Virus record (IMG/VR): IMGVR_UViG_2778261058_000017 | Span: 1 to 6,000 of that record | Length of the DNA stretch: 6,000 nt | Source: a virus | Taxonomy: Duplodnaviria; Heunggongvirae; Uroviricota; Caudoviricetes | Strand: one strand, 5' to 3' | Shown here: positions 1-6,000 of the stretch, piece by piece | How positions within the stretch are numbered: the stretch's first letter is position 1 | Layout of the letters: each line of letters begins with the position of its first letter | The notes under the pieces: model-generated | Told to the model about the DNA's origin: nothing | What the model saw: only the letters and a program-made list of their open reading frames with translations | Database searches by the model: none | Program-made: the position numbers and the translations under genes

Positions 1-235
1 AACACCCTCAGACATTATCAATTTTAGATATAGTATGTCCTTGGCGTAGATTTCTCAAGAGTGTAAACAAGGGGGGAGACTTATGCTGGAAACTTGGGAA
101 AAAGCGACTGTTATTTTGTTCAGTAAACACCATGTAAACACACTGCCAACTGGCAACCATTCAATACTCACACCATCGAACGGACTTCAGCTGACCGCGA
201 CCTGTTTCTTCATTCTCGGATAGCGGCATTCATCT

Positions 236-823
236 TTATGCTGGTTTTGCTGGCCAAGTGATGTCAGGTGCTTTCGATGTATCGACCTCCTGAAGTGCTT
301 TAATGTACCAAATCCACGCAATCAGACTCGTCTTATCTTCGTCGCTAATGATTCCCAATTGCAGTTCAGTTGTCCAGAAACTGATCTTTTCCTTAGCTTT
401 TACCAATAGAATAGCTTTTTGCTTATCAGCCACTTCAACATCAGCTGCATACTTAGCATTTGGGTCTGATACCCACTTTTTCCCATCCCATTTCTGGAAC
501 GGATCAGAAGGAGCAATATTGGTATAGCCATTATTAATAGGACCAATATAGTCGATAGTATGAGGCATACCGTCAGTAGTTGAATAAACTGTCTTACCTC
601 GATGGTCTTCTTTCAAGACCCATCCTCCATTTTCGAATACAGCAACCTTTCCTGTTAGTTCATTACCCGGATCAATATCGGTAGAATTACCCGGCATACT
701 GACGCCAATATTAATATATTCGTCTGACCATCCTATATATTCAAAAGTTACTATATCGTAGTAATAGCAGCGGATTTCACCCGGTTCCGTTGCCAGTCCA
801 TTTTCATCAAAAACAGGTTTCAT
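236..823 (-). CDS. Phage tail fibre assembly protein (lambda Tfa family)
   Basis: 195-aa ORF. Translation carries blocks I recall from lambda Tfa: EDHRGKTVY, YQKWNG-type FQKWDGKKWV, and C-terminal VDTSKAPDITWPAKP (lambda: VDTSTAPDIEWP). Start ATG 821-823 overlaps the stop of the upstream tail-fibre ORF (TAATG), the usual tail fibre to tfa coupling. Confidence 0.88.
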   Translation of the reverse strand: MKPVFDENGLATEPGEIRCYYYDIVTFEYIGWSDEYINIGVSMPGNSTDIDPGNELTGKVAVFENGGWVLKEDHRGKTVYSTTDGMPHTIDYIGPINNGYTNIAPSDPFQKWDGKKWVSDPNAKYAADVEVADKQKAILLVKAKEKISFWTTELQLGIISDEDKTSLIAWIWYIKALQEVDTSKAPDITWPAKPA

Positions 824-1635
824 TATTTAGCCCTTACTAAAAAGTTAAATGTGATATTGCGGGGACGTGTTTCGTTGCCTCCAGGATTTTGGAATGCAGG
901 TAAAGCTCCCCCTATCGGCTGACTGATTCCGTTGGTATATAAAGGAGCTGCATTCGATATTGTACCAAACACTACATTGCTACCATTTCCGCTTGTCCCT
1001 AAAAATTTATGCTCATGCATTTTGAAGTCATCTGCTTGTGCAGAAAGTAAGGTTCGCCCTCTATCCACCCCGCGCCCATCATCCCAGATACGAATAAAAT
1101 CACCCCGTGCGTCAGGTAATGCTAGCGCCGGAAACACTTTCGCCAGCACAGGGTAATCAGTGGCAGAGAATTTCGCGCCGTTGAACTTCAAAAACACCAT
1201 ACTGGACCAACTGTCGATTACAGTATTTGGCATTGCGGCGGACGGCCAGAAGAACGGAACACCAATAGCTGGAGCACCTTCTCCCAAACCAAGATTTTCG
1301 AGAGCCGTTTTCACCGTGCCATCCGATTTGATATCACCAAACGGATTCTTGCGGCTTAACAGCAGCGCGCGAAGTGCGGTACCAAAGGCAGCACCTTTTA
1401 GCTCCGCAAGACGTTCTGACCAGTCATGCGCCAGCGCGTTGTCTTCCGCCGTGTAATACGCAGCACATTTGGCGTTATCACCGTCAGTGAACAGATCCAG
1501 AACAAACGGGCCAAACAGGGTGTTAATTCCCCAGAAAATGTTATCCGGCGTGCGCCACTGATCGCCCACTTCCTTCAGTTCATGGGCTGGTTTGTTCCGC
1601 AGTTCGACCAGCGCCTGGCAATATTTATTACTCAT
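823..1635 (-). CDS. Chimeric ORF: N-terminal fragment of phage Dam-like N6-adenine methyltransferase (about aa 1-85) fused in frame to a phage tail-fibre C-terminal domain
   Basis: Likely start is ATG 1633-1635 (MSNKYCQ...), overlapping the stop of the upstream gene as TAATG, with a GGGGG Shine-Dalgarno-like run upstream; the GTG at 1668 in the ORF track is probably an over-extension. N-terminus has the W-x-TP ... NAK ... Y-T-x-ED ... W pattern of phage Dam-family methyltransferases but breaks off at GAAFG, exactly where the catalytic NPPY motif would follow. The remainder ends in [19 protein letters not shown], resembling the conserved C-terminus of P2/Mu/lambdoid tail fibres, and is coupled to the downstream tfa. 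Family assignments are from recalled motifs. Confidence 0.72.
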
Positions 1636-2123
1636 TAAGCCCCCACGTAATTCCCTGACAGATACCACTCATCACCCGGTACAGCGCGCTTGCTGCTTTT
1701 CCGTAAACACCGCTCACGACGCGCAAGAAAATTGTTTCGCTCTGGCTGGGAGTGGCTTTCACGGAATGCCGCCATCCACACCGTTGCAGCACGACGGTAT
1801 AAGCCCCTGGACTCCAGTTCTTCCGCCTGGCGGGTCAGGCACAAAATCACCCGCGGGTCGTTAGTGCCGACATAGAAATTGCGCACAGGTCTGGTTTCAC
1901 GAACTGGTTGTGGTTCCGGCTCCTGCGCTCTCTCAGTCAGGCGCGGGAAATGTCTGCGTGTATCTCCTTCACAACGGTGAGCCACACGCCCACTCTGACG
2001 TAACTTGCTTGCTGACTGCAGAACGCGCTGCCGTGAGTAACCTGCAAAAGCATCCGCAATGTCTCCGGAAGTACAGCCCGGATGGGCTTCAATGAATTTC
2101 TGAACGTCATTCAAAAGACTCAT
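1635..2123 (-). CDS. PerC/ANR-like domain protein (putative transcriptional regulator), prophage-encoded
   Basis: Open frame of 162 aa from ATG 2121-2123 (or 164 aa from the GTG at 2127-2129, which overlaps the O-like stop as GTGA). The C-terminal segment [21 protein letters not shown]...ARRERCL matches the recalled PerC/Pch/ANR signature (E-x-R-G-L-W/Y-R-R-A-A ... R-x-x-C). The N-terminal 60 aa could be a small helical DNA-binding domain. Stop overlaps the next start (TAATG). Confidence 0.65.
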
Positions 2124-2125
2124 GC

Positions 2126-3067
2126 TCACCCCCTGAATCCTGCCGGGATCTGGCTGTAGTCCACGTTGTCGTAACTGGCTTTGAAGTACGGGTCCTCGCG
2201 TTTTTCGGTGTACGTGCTGACGGACGGCGATAAGCGCAGGGAAAGCTCATCCCATTTTTCCCGCAGCTTCGACGGGCTGAGCACGTTACGGCACCAGAAC
2301 GGATCGCGACTGACGCGGCTGTACATCTCGCAGATTTGTTTATGAGTACGACCATCCTGCACACACATCAGGCGAATTTCGTTTGCCCAGGCTGTCCAGT
2401 TCGGTTCTTTGGGACGAACCACCTCGCCGTCACATTCGGCGGCATGCTCGTACAGGGCGATGATTTTTTTCCAGAGCCACTGTGCGCAGGTCAAATCATC
2501 CTGCGTCCCCCACTGGCGCTTTTTAGGGCTGAATACAACCGCATCAGGATGGCGAGTTAAAAAATCCTGTTCAGCCTTCTGCGTGTCCGGTTGCGAAGCG
2601 TCCGGACGAGAAGTTTTTTTATCTGACGGATCATGTTTTGATTTTACTGACGGATCCCCGCCAGATTCTGACGGGTGAAAACCCGCTTTTTTGCCAGATT
2701 TCGACGCATCAAATTTTGACGGGTCAGATTTTGATGCGTCAGATTTTGACGGGTCAGAATCTGACAGTTGAGAAAAAGCCGCAGCCTGAAGCTTCGCAAC
2801 GTTAAGCTGATAAACATTCGACGCATTGCGGTTACCCTGGCGACGCGCCTTACGCGTTAACCAGCCTTCTGCTTCCAGCCGTGCGATAGCCGTTCTGACG
2901 GTACTCATCCCCGCGCCAATCTGGCGGGCAATGGTTTCAATTGATGGCCAGCACACACCTTCGTCATTACTGAAATCAGCCAGGCGTGCCATAATTGCCA
3001 CGCTGGATAATTTCATGCCTGACGCTGCGCAACCATCCCATACATAGCCGGTTAATTTAGTGCTCAT
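2126..3067 (-). CDS. Phage replication initiator (lambda O-like), N-terminal winged-HTH DNA-binding domain, carrying internal iterons
   Basis: 313-aa ORF with ATG at 3065-3067 preceded by GAGG. The N-terminal about 90 aa look like the HTH domain typical of phage/plasmid replication initiators (SSVAIMARLADFSNDEGVCWPSIETIARQIGAGMSTVRTAIARLEAEGWL). The central low-complexity segment SDSDPSKSDASKSDPSKFDASKS is encoded by tandem 15-bp DNA repeats, as in lambda where ori lies inside O. Confidence 0.82.
   Translation of the reverse strand: MSTKLTGYVWDGCAASGMKLSSVAIMARLADFSNDEGVCWPSIETIARQIGAGMSTVRTAIARLEAEGWLTRKARRQGNRNASNVYQLNVAKLQAAAFSQLSDSDPSKSDASKSDPSKFDASKSGKKAGFHPSESGGDPSVKSKHDPSDKKTSRPDASQPDTQKAEQDFLTRHPDAVVFSPKKRQWGTQDDLTCAQWLWKKIIALYEHAAECDGEVVRPKEPNWTAWANEIRLMCVQDGRTHKQICEMYSRVSRDPFWCRNVLSPSKLREKWDELSLRLSPSVSTYTEKREDPYFKASYDNVDYSQIPAGFRG
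2621..2770. repeat. Putative replication origin iterons: about 8 copies of a 15-bp repeat (consensus near AGATTTTGACGGGTC) inside the O-like gene
   Basis: Five contiguous 15-bp units at 2695-2709, 2710-2724, 2725-2739, 2740-2754 and 2755-2769, plus three dispersed copies at 2621-2632, 2641-2656 and 2662-2677, all sharing the core TGACGG (TGATGC/CGACGC variants). DNA-level identity exceeds what the encoded Ser/Asp/Lys linker would need. Confidence 0.6.
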
Positions 3068-3076
3068 GACCGACCT

Positions 3077-3415
3077 CTATTTCCCTGAATTTACGACGAA
3101 ACTGTTCGAGCGGACTGAAGCATTCATGCTCATAGCCTTCGCGGAGGTAGATAACCCGTTGTGTTTCCGGCTCCCAACGAATGACTCTGACGGGTACTCC
3201 GTAGTGATCTTTGAACCAGCGGTTAACTTGTCGCAAAGGACTGTCTCCTTTTGCCGGTTAAAATCACCCACAGCCCACTCTGCAAAGCTGTGGGTTACAA
3301 TTACCCTGCCACCTGGTACATTCACTGCATAGCAATACTCCACCTTCGCTTTTCCACCCGGTACAGGAAGCGCAATCAGTTGCGAGCGACGGTAGTGTGT
3401 TGTTAAACTATTCAT
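3077..3415 (-). CDS. Hypothetical early-region protein, probably disrupted by a frameshift (intact form about 119 aa ending at 3062)
   Basis: 112-aa ORF with ATG 3413-3415 overlapping the upstream stop (ATGA). A second minus-strand frame is open from 3257 to 3062 and encodes a protein-like sequence ([60 protein letters not shown]) whose stop overlaps the O-like start. The two frames can be joined by a 1-nt indel at the T4/A4 homopolymer at 3249-3252. No family recognised. Confidence 0.5.
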
Positions 3416-3963
3416 GCGTTAGTTTCTCCACAGTCACGACACGCCACGGCGCCCGGAGCTGCACACTCGCGGGCGTCATTACTTTCTGAAATGCAAAAAA
3501 TTTTGTAGACCAGTGCTGCATGCTCCTGCAGCTTCGAAATTGAGAGGTACAGCTCGTCGTTAATTGCTGTCTTCTCATGCGGTTCCACTACACCGTCTTC
3601 AATTGCTGAACGAATCTGTTTTGAATAACTGCCGATCTGTTCAATGACCTCCAGCAGGCGTTGGTTGATATCGGCGTTGTCCACATCCTCGACATCAGGA
3701 AGAGACACAAAGACGCCATTTGCAGACTGCGCCACAGCGTCAGCAATGAAGTGAGTTCCACCAGCACGTTGCAAAATCATTGCCCATCCCAGCGGGAAAA
3801 TCTGATCGCCATCGGCACGAAGGCGGTTAAATAATGCGTTCTCTGTTACATCCAGCCAGTCAGCAGCTTCAGCGTACCCCCCCGGCAACGCTGCGATAGT
3901 TTTTCTGACAGCTTTCACGTACCACTCAGGCTGTTTTTCTACTTTCCAGTGATGCTTACCCAC
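3412..3963 (-). CDS. Phage regulatory protein in the CII position (resembles the 186-CII/CP76-type family), putative
   Basis: 183-aa ORF with GTG start at 3961-3963 preceded by AGGAGG at 6-nt spacing; overlaps the Cro-like gene by 8 nt. The N-terminal region has an HTH-like segment ([22 protein letters not shown]). Position immediately downstream of cro and size both fit long CII-type regulators. Family call is from recalled features and is tentative. Confidence 0.6.
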
Positions 3964-4216
3964 GGTTCACCTCCTGTTCCTGTGGTTTAAACCCATTCTG
4001 GTTTTGGCTAGATTGAAAACGTGCCGGATAAAGAATCTGCATTTCGCTGACTTCACCCTTAAAAAAATTGGCTAAACGTTCTGCAAGCTCGATAGATGGA
4101 ATCTGCTCCAGCCTCTCAATACGACTCAACGTCGCTGGATTGACTTGAACACCCGCAGCAACATGCTGCAAAGTGAAACCATGCGCCTTACGCACATTTC
4201 GTAATGGTGATTGCAT
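3956..4216 (-). CDS. Cro-like HTH (XRE-family) transcriptional regulator
   Basis: 86-aa ORF with ATG 4214-4216 preceded by GGAGG (complement of 4222-4226). HTH segment FTLQHVAAGVQVNPATLSRIERLEQIPSIELAERLANFF. Divergent from the CI-like repressor across a 97-bp operator region. Confidence 0.8.
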   Translation of the reverse strand: MQSPLRNVRKAHGFTLQHVAAGVQVNPATLSRIERLEQIPSIELAERLANFFKGEVSEMQILYPARFQSSQNQNGFKPQEQEVNRG

Positions 4217-4313
4217 ATGTCCTCCAAATATTGCGCGTTATGCATGTTATTTCACGCAATTATTTTGCGCAAGTTGATTTGCTTATCACGCAATAAAGAA
4301 ATGTAATAAACGC
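4217..4313. promoter_or_regulatory. Divergent promoter/operator region (OR-like) between the Cro-like and CI-like genes
   Basis: Two similarly built 29-bp sites: TTGCGCG-N15-CACGCAA (4231-4259) and TTGCGCA-N15-CACGCAA (4265-4293), with half-sites 22 bp apart. Candidate leftward promoter: -35 TTGCGC (complement of 4267-4272) and -10 TAACAT (complement of 4244-4249). Candidate promoter for the repressor: -35 TTGCTT 4279-4284 and -10 TGTAAT 4302-4307, ending 6 nt before the ATG, and no Shine-Dalgarno sequence, suggesting a leaderless mRNA as for lambda cI from PRM. Confidence 0.65.
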
Positions 4314-5006
4314 ATGAACATAGGAAACCGAGTCAGACAACTTCGCCAAGCGAAGAACATGAAAATCGCCGATCTCGCTGAAGCAATAGGAGTAGATGCG
4401 GCGAACATCTCGCGCTTAGAAACGGGTAAGCAAAAACAATTTACCGAACAAACACTGAGTAATATTGCCAAGAGCTTAGGTGTTGATATTGCTGATCTCT
4501 TTACCTCTGCCCACAAAAGTAATACTGTATATAAAAACAGTAATAATGAGGATGTTGCGCAGGTGAAGGATGTGTTCCGTATTGAAATGCTGGATATCAG
4601 TGCCAGTGCGGGAAATGGCCTTATCCAGGGCGGTGATGTCATTGATGTGATTCATGCCATCGAATACAGAACTGATAATGCTGTATCAATGTTCGGCGGA
4701 CGACCAGCCAATCACATCAAAGTTATCAACGTTCGTGGGGACAGTATGTGTCCAACCATTGAGCCAGGAGATCTCATCTTCGTTGATGTCAGCATCAATC
4801 AGTTTGATGGTGATGGTATATATGTCTTTGGTTTTGATGACAAAATATACGTTAAAAGACTTCAAATGATTCCTGACAAACTGCTGGTGATTTCTGATAA
4901 CCAGATTTACCGTGAATGGGGAATTACTAGCGAAAACGAACACCGATTCATGGTCTTTGGAAAGGTCTTAATCAGTCAGTCGCAAACCCTTAAGAGACAT
5001 AATTAA
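4314..5006 (+). CDS. CI-like prophage repressor: N-terminal HTH (XRE) plus C-terminal LexA-type S24 peptidase autocleavage domain
   Basis: 230-aa ORF. N-terminal HTH (IADLAEAIGVDAANISRLETG). Putative Ala99-Gly100 cleavage site (SASAGNG). Ser144 in GDSM and Lys181 in YVKRL, with the Ser-Lys spacing of 37 that I recall for LexA. Confidence 0.92.
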   Translation: MNIGNRVRQLRQAKNMKIADLAEAIGVDAANISRLETGKQKQFTEQTLSNIAKSLGVDIADLFTSAHKSNTVYKNSNNEDVAQVKDVFRIEMLDISASAGNGLIQGGDVIDVIHAIEYRTDNAVSMFGGRPANHIKVINVRGDSMCPTIEPGDLIFVDVSINQFDGDGIYVFGFDDKIYVKRLQMIPDKLLVISDNQIYREWGITSENEHRFMVFGKVLISQSQTLKRHN

Positions 5007-5026
5007 CCTCAATATCCCATCCATCG

Positions 5027-5047
5027 GCCACCGAAAGGTGGCTTTTT
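5027..5047 (+). terminator. Rho-independent terminator downstream of the CI-like gene
   Basis: Perfect 6-bp stem GCCACC (5027-5032), loop GAAA, GGTGGC (5037-5042), followed by TTTTT (5043-5047), 20 nt after the repressor stop. Confidence 0.7.
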
Positions 5048-5063
5048 ATTACCTATAAAGTTA

Positions 5064-5097
5064 CATATCTCGCAAATATTACTTGCATATCTCGCAA
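5064..5097. promoter_or_regulatory. Putative secondary (OL-like) operator: direct repeat of CATATCTCGCAA, 22 bp apart
   Basis: Identical 12-mers at 5064-5075 and 5086-5097. The 10-bp core TATCTCGCAA matches the OR half-site TATCACGCAA (4284-4293) at 9 of 10 positions. A possible promoter overlaps (-35 TTGCAT 5083-5088, -10 TATCTT 5106-5111). Confidence 0.4.
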
Positions 5098-5260
5098 TTT
5101 AATTTTATCTTTTGTTCCAGACCAACTACAGGATTACAACAAAATCTGGTTGCAACACGGTGCATGTGTCGTAAGCAGTCAGTAAATGTCAAAAACGAAC
5201 AGGCAGGACGCCCACGAAGTAGCCGCCTGGGGCATATGAAGTCTAGGGTGATTCGTTAGC

Positions 5261-5286
5261 AACAAAAAAGCGCCCTACAGGACGCT
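5261..5286 (-). terminator. Hairpin plus T-run: candidate intrinsic terminator on the minus strand (alternatively a boxB-like hairpin of a plus-strand antitermination site)
   Basis: Stem AGCGCCC (5269-5275), loop TACA, GGACGCT (5280-5286), with one mismatch. On the minus strand it is followed by TTTTTTGTT (complement of 5261-5269). On the plus strand it lies 2 nt upstream of the boxA-like element. Confidence 0.4.
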
Positions 5287-5288
5287 TA

Positions 5289-5301
5289 GCTCTTTAACAA
5301 T
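5289..5301 (+). promoter_or_regulatory. boxA-like element GCTCTTTAACAAT (NusB/NusE-binding type antitermination signal)
   Basis: 13-nt run matching the recalled E. coli rrn leader boxA (TGCTCTTTAACAATTTATCA) and the boxA consensus GCTCTT(T)A. It sits in the plus-strand leader about 45 nt upstream of the small ORF at 5346, i.e. in the position of nutL relative to cI in lambda. Confidence 0.5.
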
Positions 5302-5345
5302 CTGGTCCCCATCAACAAGTAACTGATAACTTGAGGAGGTGTGAA

Positions 5346-5552
5346 ATGCACAAAACAGAACCCAAAATCGTCGCGCCCGGATACACAAATGAGGAAATTT
5401 ACGAGTGGATGGCAAAGAAGCTGGCAGCTATAAACCAGCTTCGTGAAGTGCTGTCTTATCGACAGGAAACAATAGACTCCTTAAAAAAACTGGATCAGGA
5501 AATCACGGTTTTATCACAGGATGTTACTTTAGATATTGTGCAGACAAATTAG
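5346..5552 (+). CDS. Small hypothetical protein (68 aa), predicted helical; first gene downstream of the cI-distal operator/boxA leader
   Basis: ATG at 5346 preceded by a strong GAGGAGG (5333-5339) at 6-nt spacing; the TTG at 5331 in the ORF track is unlikely to be the start. Not Arg-rich, so not an N-like antiterminator. Its 3' end overlaps the convergent minus-strand gene by 29 nt. Confidence 0.55.
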   Translation: MHKTEPKIVAPGYTNEEIYEWMAKKLAAINQLREVLSYRQETIDSLKKLDQEITVLSQDVTLDIVQTN

Positions 5553-6000
5553 GATCCCATTCATTTTCGTCAAAATCATCAAAGTGATGAATTTGTGATC
5601 TCCAGTCTCGATAATCTAAAAATTTCTGGGCGGTTACGCTTATTTTATCAAGTGTGAGTTCATCCTGAATTGAAAGAAGAAGTTCATCAAATTTCATCTC
5701 ATTAATCTGTTTTGGCATCCAGTGATGCTTCATCAGAATAAGGTGAACCAGAGCCTTTTTCCCATTCAACTGATTATAGGGAGTGCCGAATTTCTTCCGG
5801 TGCTCATGTAAGACAAGGTCCAGAAGAGTAAGTAATGTTGCCCTTGATTCCACTTTGCTTATTTCGACTGATGACACTACCCCACTGATTTCAATGCCCC
5901 GATACTTTCCAACATTTTCACAGTGGGATTTGTACAGCGTGTATGTTAGCGCCAGTGATATAAGACGGTAATTCACCATTTGGATTGTCCGCTCCACCCA
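5524..6000 (-). CDS. Hypothetical protein, AT-rich accessory (moron-like) gene; 5' end probably beyond the window
   Basis: Open frame from the window edge to the TAA stop at 5524-5526, at least 158 codons. The GTG at 5997 and the ATG at 5977-5979 are possible but unconvincing starts. Lower GC than the replication genes, by eye. Oriented against the putative early-left transcript. No family recognised. Confidence 0.6.
   Translation of the reverse strand, partial: WVERTIQMVNYRLISLALTYTLYKSHCENVGKYRGIEISGVVSSVEISKVESRATLLTLLDLVLHEHRKKFGTPYNQLNGKKALVHLILMKHHWMPKQINEMKFDELLLSIQDELTLDKISVTAQKFLDYRDWRSQIHHFDDFDENEWDPNLSAQYLK

Follow-up and report, generated by a model that had tools for sequence, protein, structure and literature searches.

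We examined a DNA stretch of 6,000 nucleotides (positions 1 to 6,000 of the IMG/VR record IMGVR_UViG_2778261058_000017; hereafter the window), which represents the early region of a lambdoid prophage of the CPS-53 / SfIV / e14 type. Its right end, next to the repressor gene, harbors two convergent genes. The plus-strand gene (5346-5552; hereafter the small gene) encodes a protein of 68 amino acids (aa) that belongs to PHROG 1744 and is identical to WP_000549626.1. Its minus-strand counterpart (5524-5943; hereafter the large gene) is a 5'-truncated member of the ECs1072 family, of which codons 6-144 and the stop codon (5524-5526, minus strand) are left, as documented by NF033230, PHROG 5286 and the alignment to intact loci. 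An initial annotation, made from the letters of the DNA alone, had described a 68-aa open reading frame (ORF) behind a strong ribosome-binding site (RBS), a 3' overlap of 29 bp between convergent genes, an AT-rich region and a larger gene directed against the early-left transcript. These points are borne out. The motif GAGGAGG is located at 5333-5339, six bases upstream of the ATG of the small gene, and the overlap comprises positions 5524-5552. The GC content is 0.37-0.43 at 5400-6000 versus 0.50-0.58 in the replication genes (1200-3900), and in intact relatives the genes from yfdP through xis and int lie on the plus strand, downstream in the early-left direction and hence opposite to the large gene.

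The small protein aligns with PHROG 1744 over its entire length (residues 1-68 of 68, E 4.8e-34) and is helical or coiled-coil-like. Comparative data indicate that it is more than the product of a chance ORF, because homologues exist at 18-50% identity and the ratio of nonsynonymous to synonymous substitution rates (dN/dS) is about 0.14 relative to the nearest diverged (E. albertii-type) allele. Partners of this kind have the N-terminal motif M-x-K-x-E-P ... [ST]-x-E-[EQ]-[ILV]-x-[EQD]-W in common, with a coiled-coil-like stretch behind it. The length is 68 aa in the window and 80-87 aa in the long forms, which correspond to PHROG 3501. The candidate role of a lambda-N-like antiterminator was rejected, since by our own count the protein lacks an arginine-rich motif and carries about -3 net charge; in other phages, the same slot is filled by genuine N-peptide-family proteins.

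The large protein matches the NCBIfam model NF033230 ("ECs1072 family phage-associated protein") with 155.4 bits (cutoff 70, E 9e-46), residues 20-158 of the window translation corresponding to profile positions 4-142 of 142, and it also matches PHROG 5286 (E 1e-87). Both proteins of the pair had at first been regarded as falling outside recognised families; they do belong to catalogued ones (NF033230/PHROG 5286 and PHROG 1744), all of which are uncharacterised. The intact large gene has 144 codons and starts at an ATG equivalent to window position 5958; its product (MSGNIYTLYKSH...) is WP_000016389.1. The initial annotation had correctly placed an ORF on the minus strand but gave it at least 158 codons, extending beyond position 6000 and cut by the window edge. 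What disrupts the gene is instead an insertion. All alignments of the window to intact loci end at 5940-5943, and the 57 bases at 5944-6000 occur in 2,702 E. coli records beside unrelated genes and differ by one mismatch from the left end of the IS21 (istA/istB) that interrupts vat in strain UPEC129. Because the homology stops at 5943 and positions 5944-6000 equal an IS21 end, we conclude from these matches that an IS21-family insertion sequence (IS) has been inserted at 5943/5944, 15 bp inside the coding sequence; its left end occupies 5944-6000 (plus strand), and istA is expected to the right of the window. The IS end has replaced the first five codons (the native start, MSGNI) together with the RBS and the promoter or upstream region, and a full-length ECs1072 gene, about 144 codons long and with a start codon of its own, is accordingly not present in the window. 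The codons beyond 5943 are read-through into IS sequence that stays open by chance. The junction between IS21 and the large gene is absent from all complete E. coli genomes of the collection, and the cassette in the window is most likely a relic in an already defective prophage.

The extent of the ECs1072 family became apparent with an exhaustive profile search, a word-indexed search having returned few relatives of the large protein. It comprises 76 cluster representatives, mostly of about 143-155 aa apart from fragments, and the ten members sampled originate from Salmonella, Citrobacter, Enterobacter, Xenorhabdus, Limnobaculum, Proteus and Pantoea. Nearly invariant positions are L50, R54, L64, G66, A69, H72 and W134, the last of which sits inside an EWDP motif. 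The AlphaFold2 model of this soluble-looking protein of about 145 aa, based on a 47-sequence alignment, is confident and all-helical, with a mean predicted local distance difference test (pLDDT) of 94.3 and a predicted template modelling score (pTM) of 0.88. The dN/dS of the large gene is 0.20 relative to the E. albertii-type allele, and given this value and the 0.14 of the small gene, both genes of the pair are under purifying selection. The allele of the large gene is present in 420 of 5,426 complete E. coli genomes (about 8%). The sole expression evidence that we found for ECs1072, indirect as regards the lysogenic state, is a microarray table, in which its transcript changed about two-fold at the growth transition of an O157 Sakai lysogen (PMC2241611). 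Literature searches on ECs1072 and WP_000016389, together with the DefensePredictor supplements, yielded no functional study.

The gene neighbourhood, whose conservation in related prophages had been proposed as a check, is retained over large evolutionary distances. A homologous small partner, convergent and with a 3' overlap of 29-95 bp, accompanies the large gene in eight loci, with the large proteins being 35-52% identical where measured. Besides the window, the pair loci, designated here by L numbers, are L089, L093, L090, L086 and L097-L100. Identity of the large protein is highest in L089 (52%; convergent partner of 66 aa, overlap 44 bp), followed by L093 (36%; 67 aa, 35 bp), L090 from Xenorhabdus (36%; 87 aa, 95 bp) and L086 from Serratia (35%; 80 aa, 74 bp). 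The partners of L097-L099 from Salmonella and L100 from Klebsiella have 85 aa each and overlap by 83 and 92 bp, respectively. Near-identical copies in E. coli and Shigella all retain both genes while the adjoining repressor varies; these copies are not independent observations, and it is the distant loci that carry the information. The pair occupies two slots, namely behind an S24 repressor (window, L093, L090) or behind a late Q-type antiterminator and before the lysis genes (L086, L097-L100; Serratia, Salmonella and Klebsiella prophages). Its polarity is the same in both, and in all prophage contexts examined, partnerless ones included, the ECs1072 homologue is directed against the phage operon that flanks it. 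Since the convergent, overlapping partner is kept at 35-52% identity and in two slots, the pair behaves as a unit, a genuine mobile accessory cassette of two genes that is carried by temperate phages of Enterobacterales. As far as we found, the database entries do not record the partnership of PHROG 1744/3501 with NF033230/PHROG 5286.

The overlap region itself differs between the short and the long forms. Comparison with the long-form pairs showed that TAGGATCCCA at 5550-5559 is a degenerate copy of the palindrome TGGGATCCCA, which is intact in L086 (4391-4400), L097 and L100. In the long-form pairs TGGGATCCCA encodes Trp-Asp-Pro on both strands, as part of EWDP or DWDP in the large protein and of FPWDPSP in the partner. 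The window has TAGGATCCCA on the small-gene strand and TGGGATCCTA on the ECs1072 strand. The Trp codon of the partner has become a TAG stop, a change that is synonymous on the ECs1072 strand, and the 68-aa form therefore ends exactly at the Trp of the long form.

The layout around the pair provides indications of when each gene would be expressed. The gene for the cI-type repressor (4314-5006, plus strand), which was identified by a helix-turn-helix (HTH) and a peptidase S24 domain, is followed by a terminator-like hairpin at 5026-5043 (plus strand; terminator scan), whose counterpart in phage SfII is listed as a putative rho-independent terminator. The left operator and promoter (OL/PL) presumably lie at about 5060-5115 (plus strand), where two operator-like TCTCGCAA sites (5068-5075, 5090-5097) match two TCACGCAA sites of the cI-cro intergenic region. 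The shared sequence TCNCGCAA is present four times in the window, exclusively at the putative OL and in the cI-cro intergenic region (4252, 4286), compared to a chance expectation of about 1.1 matches in the whole window. The promoter candidate itself (TTGCAT-17-TATCTT, 5083-5111, plus strand) is weak and below the scan threshold. With PL at this position the small ORF would be the first ORF of the early-left transcript, which in intact relatives extends through yfdP to xis and int. On the minus strand, a hairpin with a T-run at 5268-5287 (8 pairs, tail TTTTGTTGCT) is the likely terminator of the ECs1072-family transcript, and the scan detected no further minus-strand terminator between 5524 and 5288. 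Since the hairpin is the only one, the ECs1072 mRNA would cover the small ORF and its RBS completely in antisense orientation. Phage PhiR29_1 carries a minus-strand cargo gene of another kind, which ends right beside the same conserved block. Next to the hairpin, which precedes it as in rrn leaders, we read a boxA-like GCTCTTTAACAA from the sequence (5289-5300, plus strand) that agrees in 12 of 13 bases with the E. coli rrn boxA consensus TGCTCTTTAACAA and may be part of a nut-like site.

Comparable arrangements are found in other pair loci. L093 has a near-consensus promoter, TTGACA-16-CATAAT, directly 5' of the small gene, after the bidirectional terminator of the repressor gene, and in L100 the small gene is preceded by a promoter-like site and a terminator-like hairpin downstream of the gene for the Q-type antiterminator, a layout that resembles the PR'-tR' arrangement. 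In most pair loci, the first ORF behind a lytic-direction promoter or an antiterminator gene is the small gene; in L090 and L086, it is preceded by one or two other ORFs.

The slot between the PL leader and yfdP is occupied by differing minus-strand genes in related phages, many of them across 91 viral loci, for example by a 242-aa gene in PhiR29_1 and a 63-aa gene in SfII. The variable slot, the antisense orientation, the minus-strand terminator and the lower GC content are all characteristic of morons or accessory cargo. They support the view that the pair represents accessory cargo, placed in a slot beside the immunity region and opposing the early-left operon.

These findings suggest a division of labor between the two genes, in which an ECs1072 effector expressed in the lysogen is counteracted by the small partner of the lytic phase in the manner of sieB/esc or BstA/aba. 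The layout favors a lysogeny/lysis switch of this kind; the reading is put forward tentatively, with a probability that we place somewhat below even. Transcription of the large gene would begin in the region upstream of it and run counter to the lytic operon, and because of this orientation its product should be made in the lysogen. The small gene, given its position behind a lytic-direction promoter or antiterminator, should be made only in the lytic phase. Since the genes converge and overlap, their transcripts would be mutually antisense. In the lysogen, the ECs1072 protein would exert a function that is useful to the lysogen and harmful to phage development, the most likely kind being superinfection exclusion or abortive infection. 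Upon induction, lytic transcription would collide and its RNA would pair with the ECs1072 mRNA, thereby silencing the large gene, and the small protein would neutralise the ECs1072 protein already made and thus provide the phage with immunity against its own cargo. A defence role is a plausible guess, neither supported nor contradicted by the searches. Rather doubtful, in our assessment, is the far-reaching version that the pair constitutes an unrecognised, widespread prophage defence or exclusion system, with a new fold, an antisense effector, an antidote encoded first behind the lytic promoter and a palindrome-shared Trp-Asp-Pro.

Several observations weigh against an effector with a dedicated antidote. 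The small ORF is frameshifted in one allele class, where an A7-to-A8 change at the site equivalent to the run at 5486-5492 of the window disrupts the E. albertii-type allele (L088). Several E. coli assemblies share this frameshift; the conserved C-terminus is still encoded in the downstream frame, and the change could be a sequencing error, recent decay or slippage. ECs1072 homologues without a partner are present in four lineages (L087, L091/L092, L096, L094/L095), that of L094/L095 in an apparently non-phage chromosomal context, and the effector is therefore not always in need of an antidote. The initial annotation had named the absence or frameshift of the 68-aa ORF in homologues as damaging to its reading; this applies to the E. 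albertii-type allele and to the four lineages, and the ORF is kept elsewhere. The promoter calls depend on consensus matches and operator positions. Moreover, the other cargo of the slot includes no known defence gene; its members are uncharacterised or have nothing to do with defence, among them ParD, BssS-family and ClpX-type zinc-finger proteins as well as an N-peptide antiterminator. Neither protein of the pair matches any defence model of PADLOC-DB v2.0.0 at E <= 1, Pfam contains no family at E <= 1 for the large protein, SieB included, and no domain for the small one, and the PDB sequences searched with profiles of both families returned nothing meaningful.

Further searches gave a similar picture. 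Guilt by association yielded no argument for defence, since 0 of 13 alternative cargo proteins of the slot match PADLOC. A comparison of 47 ECs1072 family members with Pfam revealed no relevant family, and Pfam assigns neither protein to SieB or Rex. The fold searches gave no significant match and no toxin or antitoxin fold; weak matches to HD/HDOD and HEPN folds were rejected, as the catalytic motifs (H..HD..D; Rx4-6H) are not conserved. The profile and structure searches called for at the outset were thus carried out and led to uncharacterised families only, without a match in Pfam, PADLOC or the PDB. Regarding toxin-antitoxin (TA) systems, the genes are convergent in all eight pair loci and not co-transcribed on one strand as in type II, and Pfam and the fold search provided neither a DNA-binding antitoxin (HTH, ribbon-helix-helix, AbrB) nor a toxin of known fold. 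A type I system with a small hydrophobic toxin and a non-coding antisense RNA is not recognisable either, both proteins being charged, soluble-looking and conserved at the amino-acid level. What had been suggested as defence, exclusion or TA-like cargo accordingly stands as accessory cargo of the immunity slot; the matches to PADLOC, SieB and toxins or antitoxins are missing, and a TA operon is disfavoured.

The solo occurrences bear on a second explanation, according to which the genes are functionally independent neighbours. The small gene would then be the usual first gene of the early or late phase, and ECs1072 would serve separately in lysogenic conversion or regulation, for example by modulating host physiology; the overlap would reflect no more than the compaction of a cassette whose members travel together. 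The partnerless ECs1072 homologues of L087, L091/L092, L094/L095 and L096 fit this explanation, and so does an Arsenophonus locus (L101) that has the partner without ECs1072; non-defence cargo such as BssS-family proteins in the slot is likewise in its favor. However, linkage, convergence and overlap persist at 35% identity in two unrelated slots, and the overlap dual-codes a conserved motif, a layout that chance neighbours would not retain. We therefore regard independence as unlikely.

The expression logic of an effector and its antidote would be the same if the polarity were reversed, with the small lytic protein being the active, toxic or host-directed component and ECs1072 its inhibitor in the lysogen. 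ECs1072 would then protect the lysogen from leaky PL/PR' expression or from the corresponding factor of superinfecting relatives, and its transcript, which is probably antisense to the small ORF and the RBS, could silence leaky expression. Yet ECs1072 is the more widespread and autonomous component (76 representatives) and occurs alone in a non-phage context, where an immunity protein without a target is unexpected, and it is the small protein that is shortened or frameshifted in many alleles while ECs1072 is kept. Reversed polarity is distinctly unlikely on these grounds. A TA addiction module, in which ECs1072 would be the toxin and either the small protein or the antisense RNA the antitoxin, may be suggested by the two-gene format with one small partner, by the ParD antitoxin found elsewhere in the same slot and by convergent 3'-overlapping transcripts like those of some type I systems, but it is very improbable, and a classical TA operon disfavoured, because the convergent layout precludes co-transcription, the small gene is placed behind lytic promoters that should be off in the lysogen, neither protein has a DNA-binding antitoxin or known toxin domain or is a small hydrophobic peptide, and ECs1072 homologues persist without a partner.

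The reading of a lysogenic effector with a lytic antidote gains its contours from comparison with known systems. In the sieB/esc/sas system of P22 and lambda, RNA of the superinfecting or induced phage and a small protein relieve the phage's own exclusion (PMC12197685). Like sieB, ECs1072 is an accessory gene of the early-left region that would be expressed in the lysogen, and the ECs1072 homologue of the Salmonella locus L091 is located between kilR and the repressor region, opposing the operon. The same position is taken by sieB in Rac. The two genes nevertheless differ in that no sequence or family relationship exists (Pfam without matches) and that the counteracting protein is encoded here by a separate convergent gene, compared to an internal in-frame product. 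SieB is a membrane protein, whereas ECs1072, from a reading of its sequence, is devoid of hydrophobic membrane segments.

The BstA/aba system of prophage BTP1 is likewise reported as a single-effector cargo beside the repressor with a built-in element that spares the phage's own lytic cycle (PMC8585504). It differs from the present pair, whose effector comprises 144 aa and has no PADLOC match although PADLOC covers known defence families, and whose antidote would consist of a protein and antisense transcription, compared to a DNA element. The slot beside cI and the presumed expression in lysogeny are shared with lambda rexAB. The rexAB genes are transcribed together with cI and in its direction; in the window, cI is followed by a terminator, the small gene is placed behind the putative PL, the large gene is antisense, and there is no homology. 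Finally, txpA/RatA and bsrG/SR4 of Bacillus prophages are type I TA pairs with convergent 3'-overlapping genes. They resemble the present pair in the convergent transcription and 3' overlap within prophage cargo, which enables the RNAs to pair. The differences are that both partners are conserved soluble proteins here, that the antisense partner is an mRNA and that a small hydrophobic toxin is lacking.

If true, the proposed relationship would enrich prophage-encoded exclusion by a compact design that combines an effector with self-immunity, and WP_000016389.1 and WP_000549626.1 would represent a directly testable pair. Relatives are found throughout Enterobacterales and also in Shigella serotype-converting phages such as SfIV. 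For the window itself the message is modest: a defective prophage whose cargo gene has been inactivated by an insertion sequence.

Upstream of the small gene we detected a conserved structured leader RNA at 5194-5257 (plus strand), recognised by covariation and core conservation, which is part of the PL leader and not of the gene pair. It consists of an outer stem P1 (5194-5199 with 5252-5257), a hairpin P2 (5226-5230 with 5243-5247) and an invariant core containing GCCCACGAAGTAGCCGC at 5210-5226. The exact 17-mer core is found in at least 120 viral contigs; the core is also present in SfII, SfV, ST64B, ZF40, SPN3UB, Yersinia phages and T5-like Providencia phages. Covariation of P1 and P2 is pronounced: 94% of cells are paired, and 98 double-change cells compare with 29 +/- 4 after shuffling, a number reached in 0 of 500 shuffles; the covariation score is 0.567 versus at most 0.122 for slid partners. 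Rfam has no match to this RNA at E <= 1. Shared homology with heteroimmune phages starts at about 5187-5192, at the 5' edge of the element. In the temperate phages examined the element follows the repressor gene, and in a T5-like phage it lies in a terminal repeat. An identity with the put sites of HK022 was rejected by sequence, since the core is absent from the HK022 immunity region and occurs once only in the window. The leader RNA may represent a cis-acting antitermination or leader element and is a candidate regulator of early transcription in many temperate and some T5-like phages. If it is an antitermination element, it would help transcription from PL to cross the antisense cargo gene.

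Additional features lie to the right of the window in intact loci. Between the ECs1072 gene and yfdP, a full-length, sub-threshold match to the small RNA (sRNA) STnc100 is located at 7070-7292 (plus strand) of L001 (38.4 bits vs a gathering score of 47, E 5e-5), where the PGAP annotation shows a frameshifted hypothetical protein. The region upstream of the ECs1072 gene (L001 6965-7060, minus strand) carries a conserved 5' leader motif, GCCTG-N11-14-CAGGC-N3-4-GTGGTATCTTGG, with a second hairpin behind it. This motif is likewise found 5' of the ECs1072 homologues in L089, L093 and L096, and it seems to precede other minus-strand cargo of the slot, appearing in ORF translations as PAFNHIRRGG or ACLFTTSGS; it may represent a shared expression module for cargo genes. 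The sRNAs svsR and C0293 are located in the 3' end of cI (PMC12803456) and were excluded as parts of the pair.

The minus strand of the window contains cro and genes of the PerC-like, O-type replication, DUF4222 and cII/YmfL-like kinds. Many E. coli genomes harbor prophages with 98.5-99% identity to positions 1380-5943, and none of the complete E. coli genomes searched has the window as a whole. Within the O-type replication gene, repeated and inverted units of the type GTCAGA(T/A)TTTGA at 2640-2800, which encode SDPSKSDASKS repeats, are probably origin iterons; an Rfam match to mir-5880 at the same place (E 0.003, 30.7 bits vs a gathering score of 97) is spurious and repeat-derived. The ORF at 823-1668 (minus strand) fuses the N-terminus of a phage N6-adenine methyltransferase to the C-terminus of a tail fibre and is followed by a tail-fibre assembly gene (236-823, minus strand). 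This fusion is a deletion joint and shows that the prophage is defective irrespective of the IS; it resembles yfdM/yfdL of CPS-53 in K-12. Another deletion fusion, from a different defective prophage, is the 163-aa E. coli protein P0004, which combines the first approximately 118 residues of ECs1072 with a tail-fibre-assembly C-terminus (PF02413).

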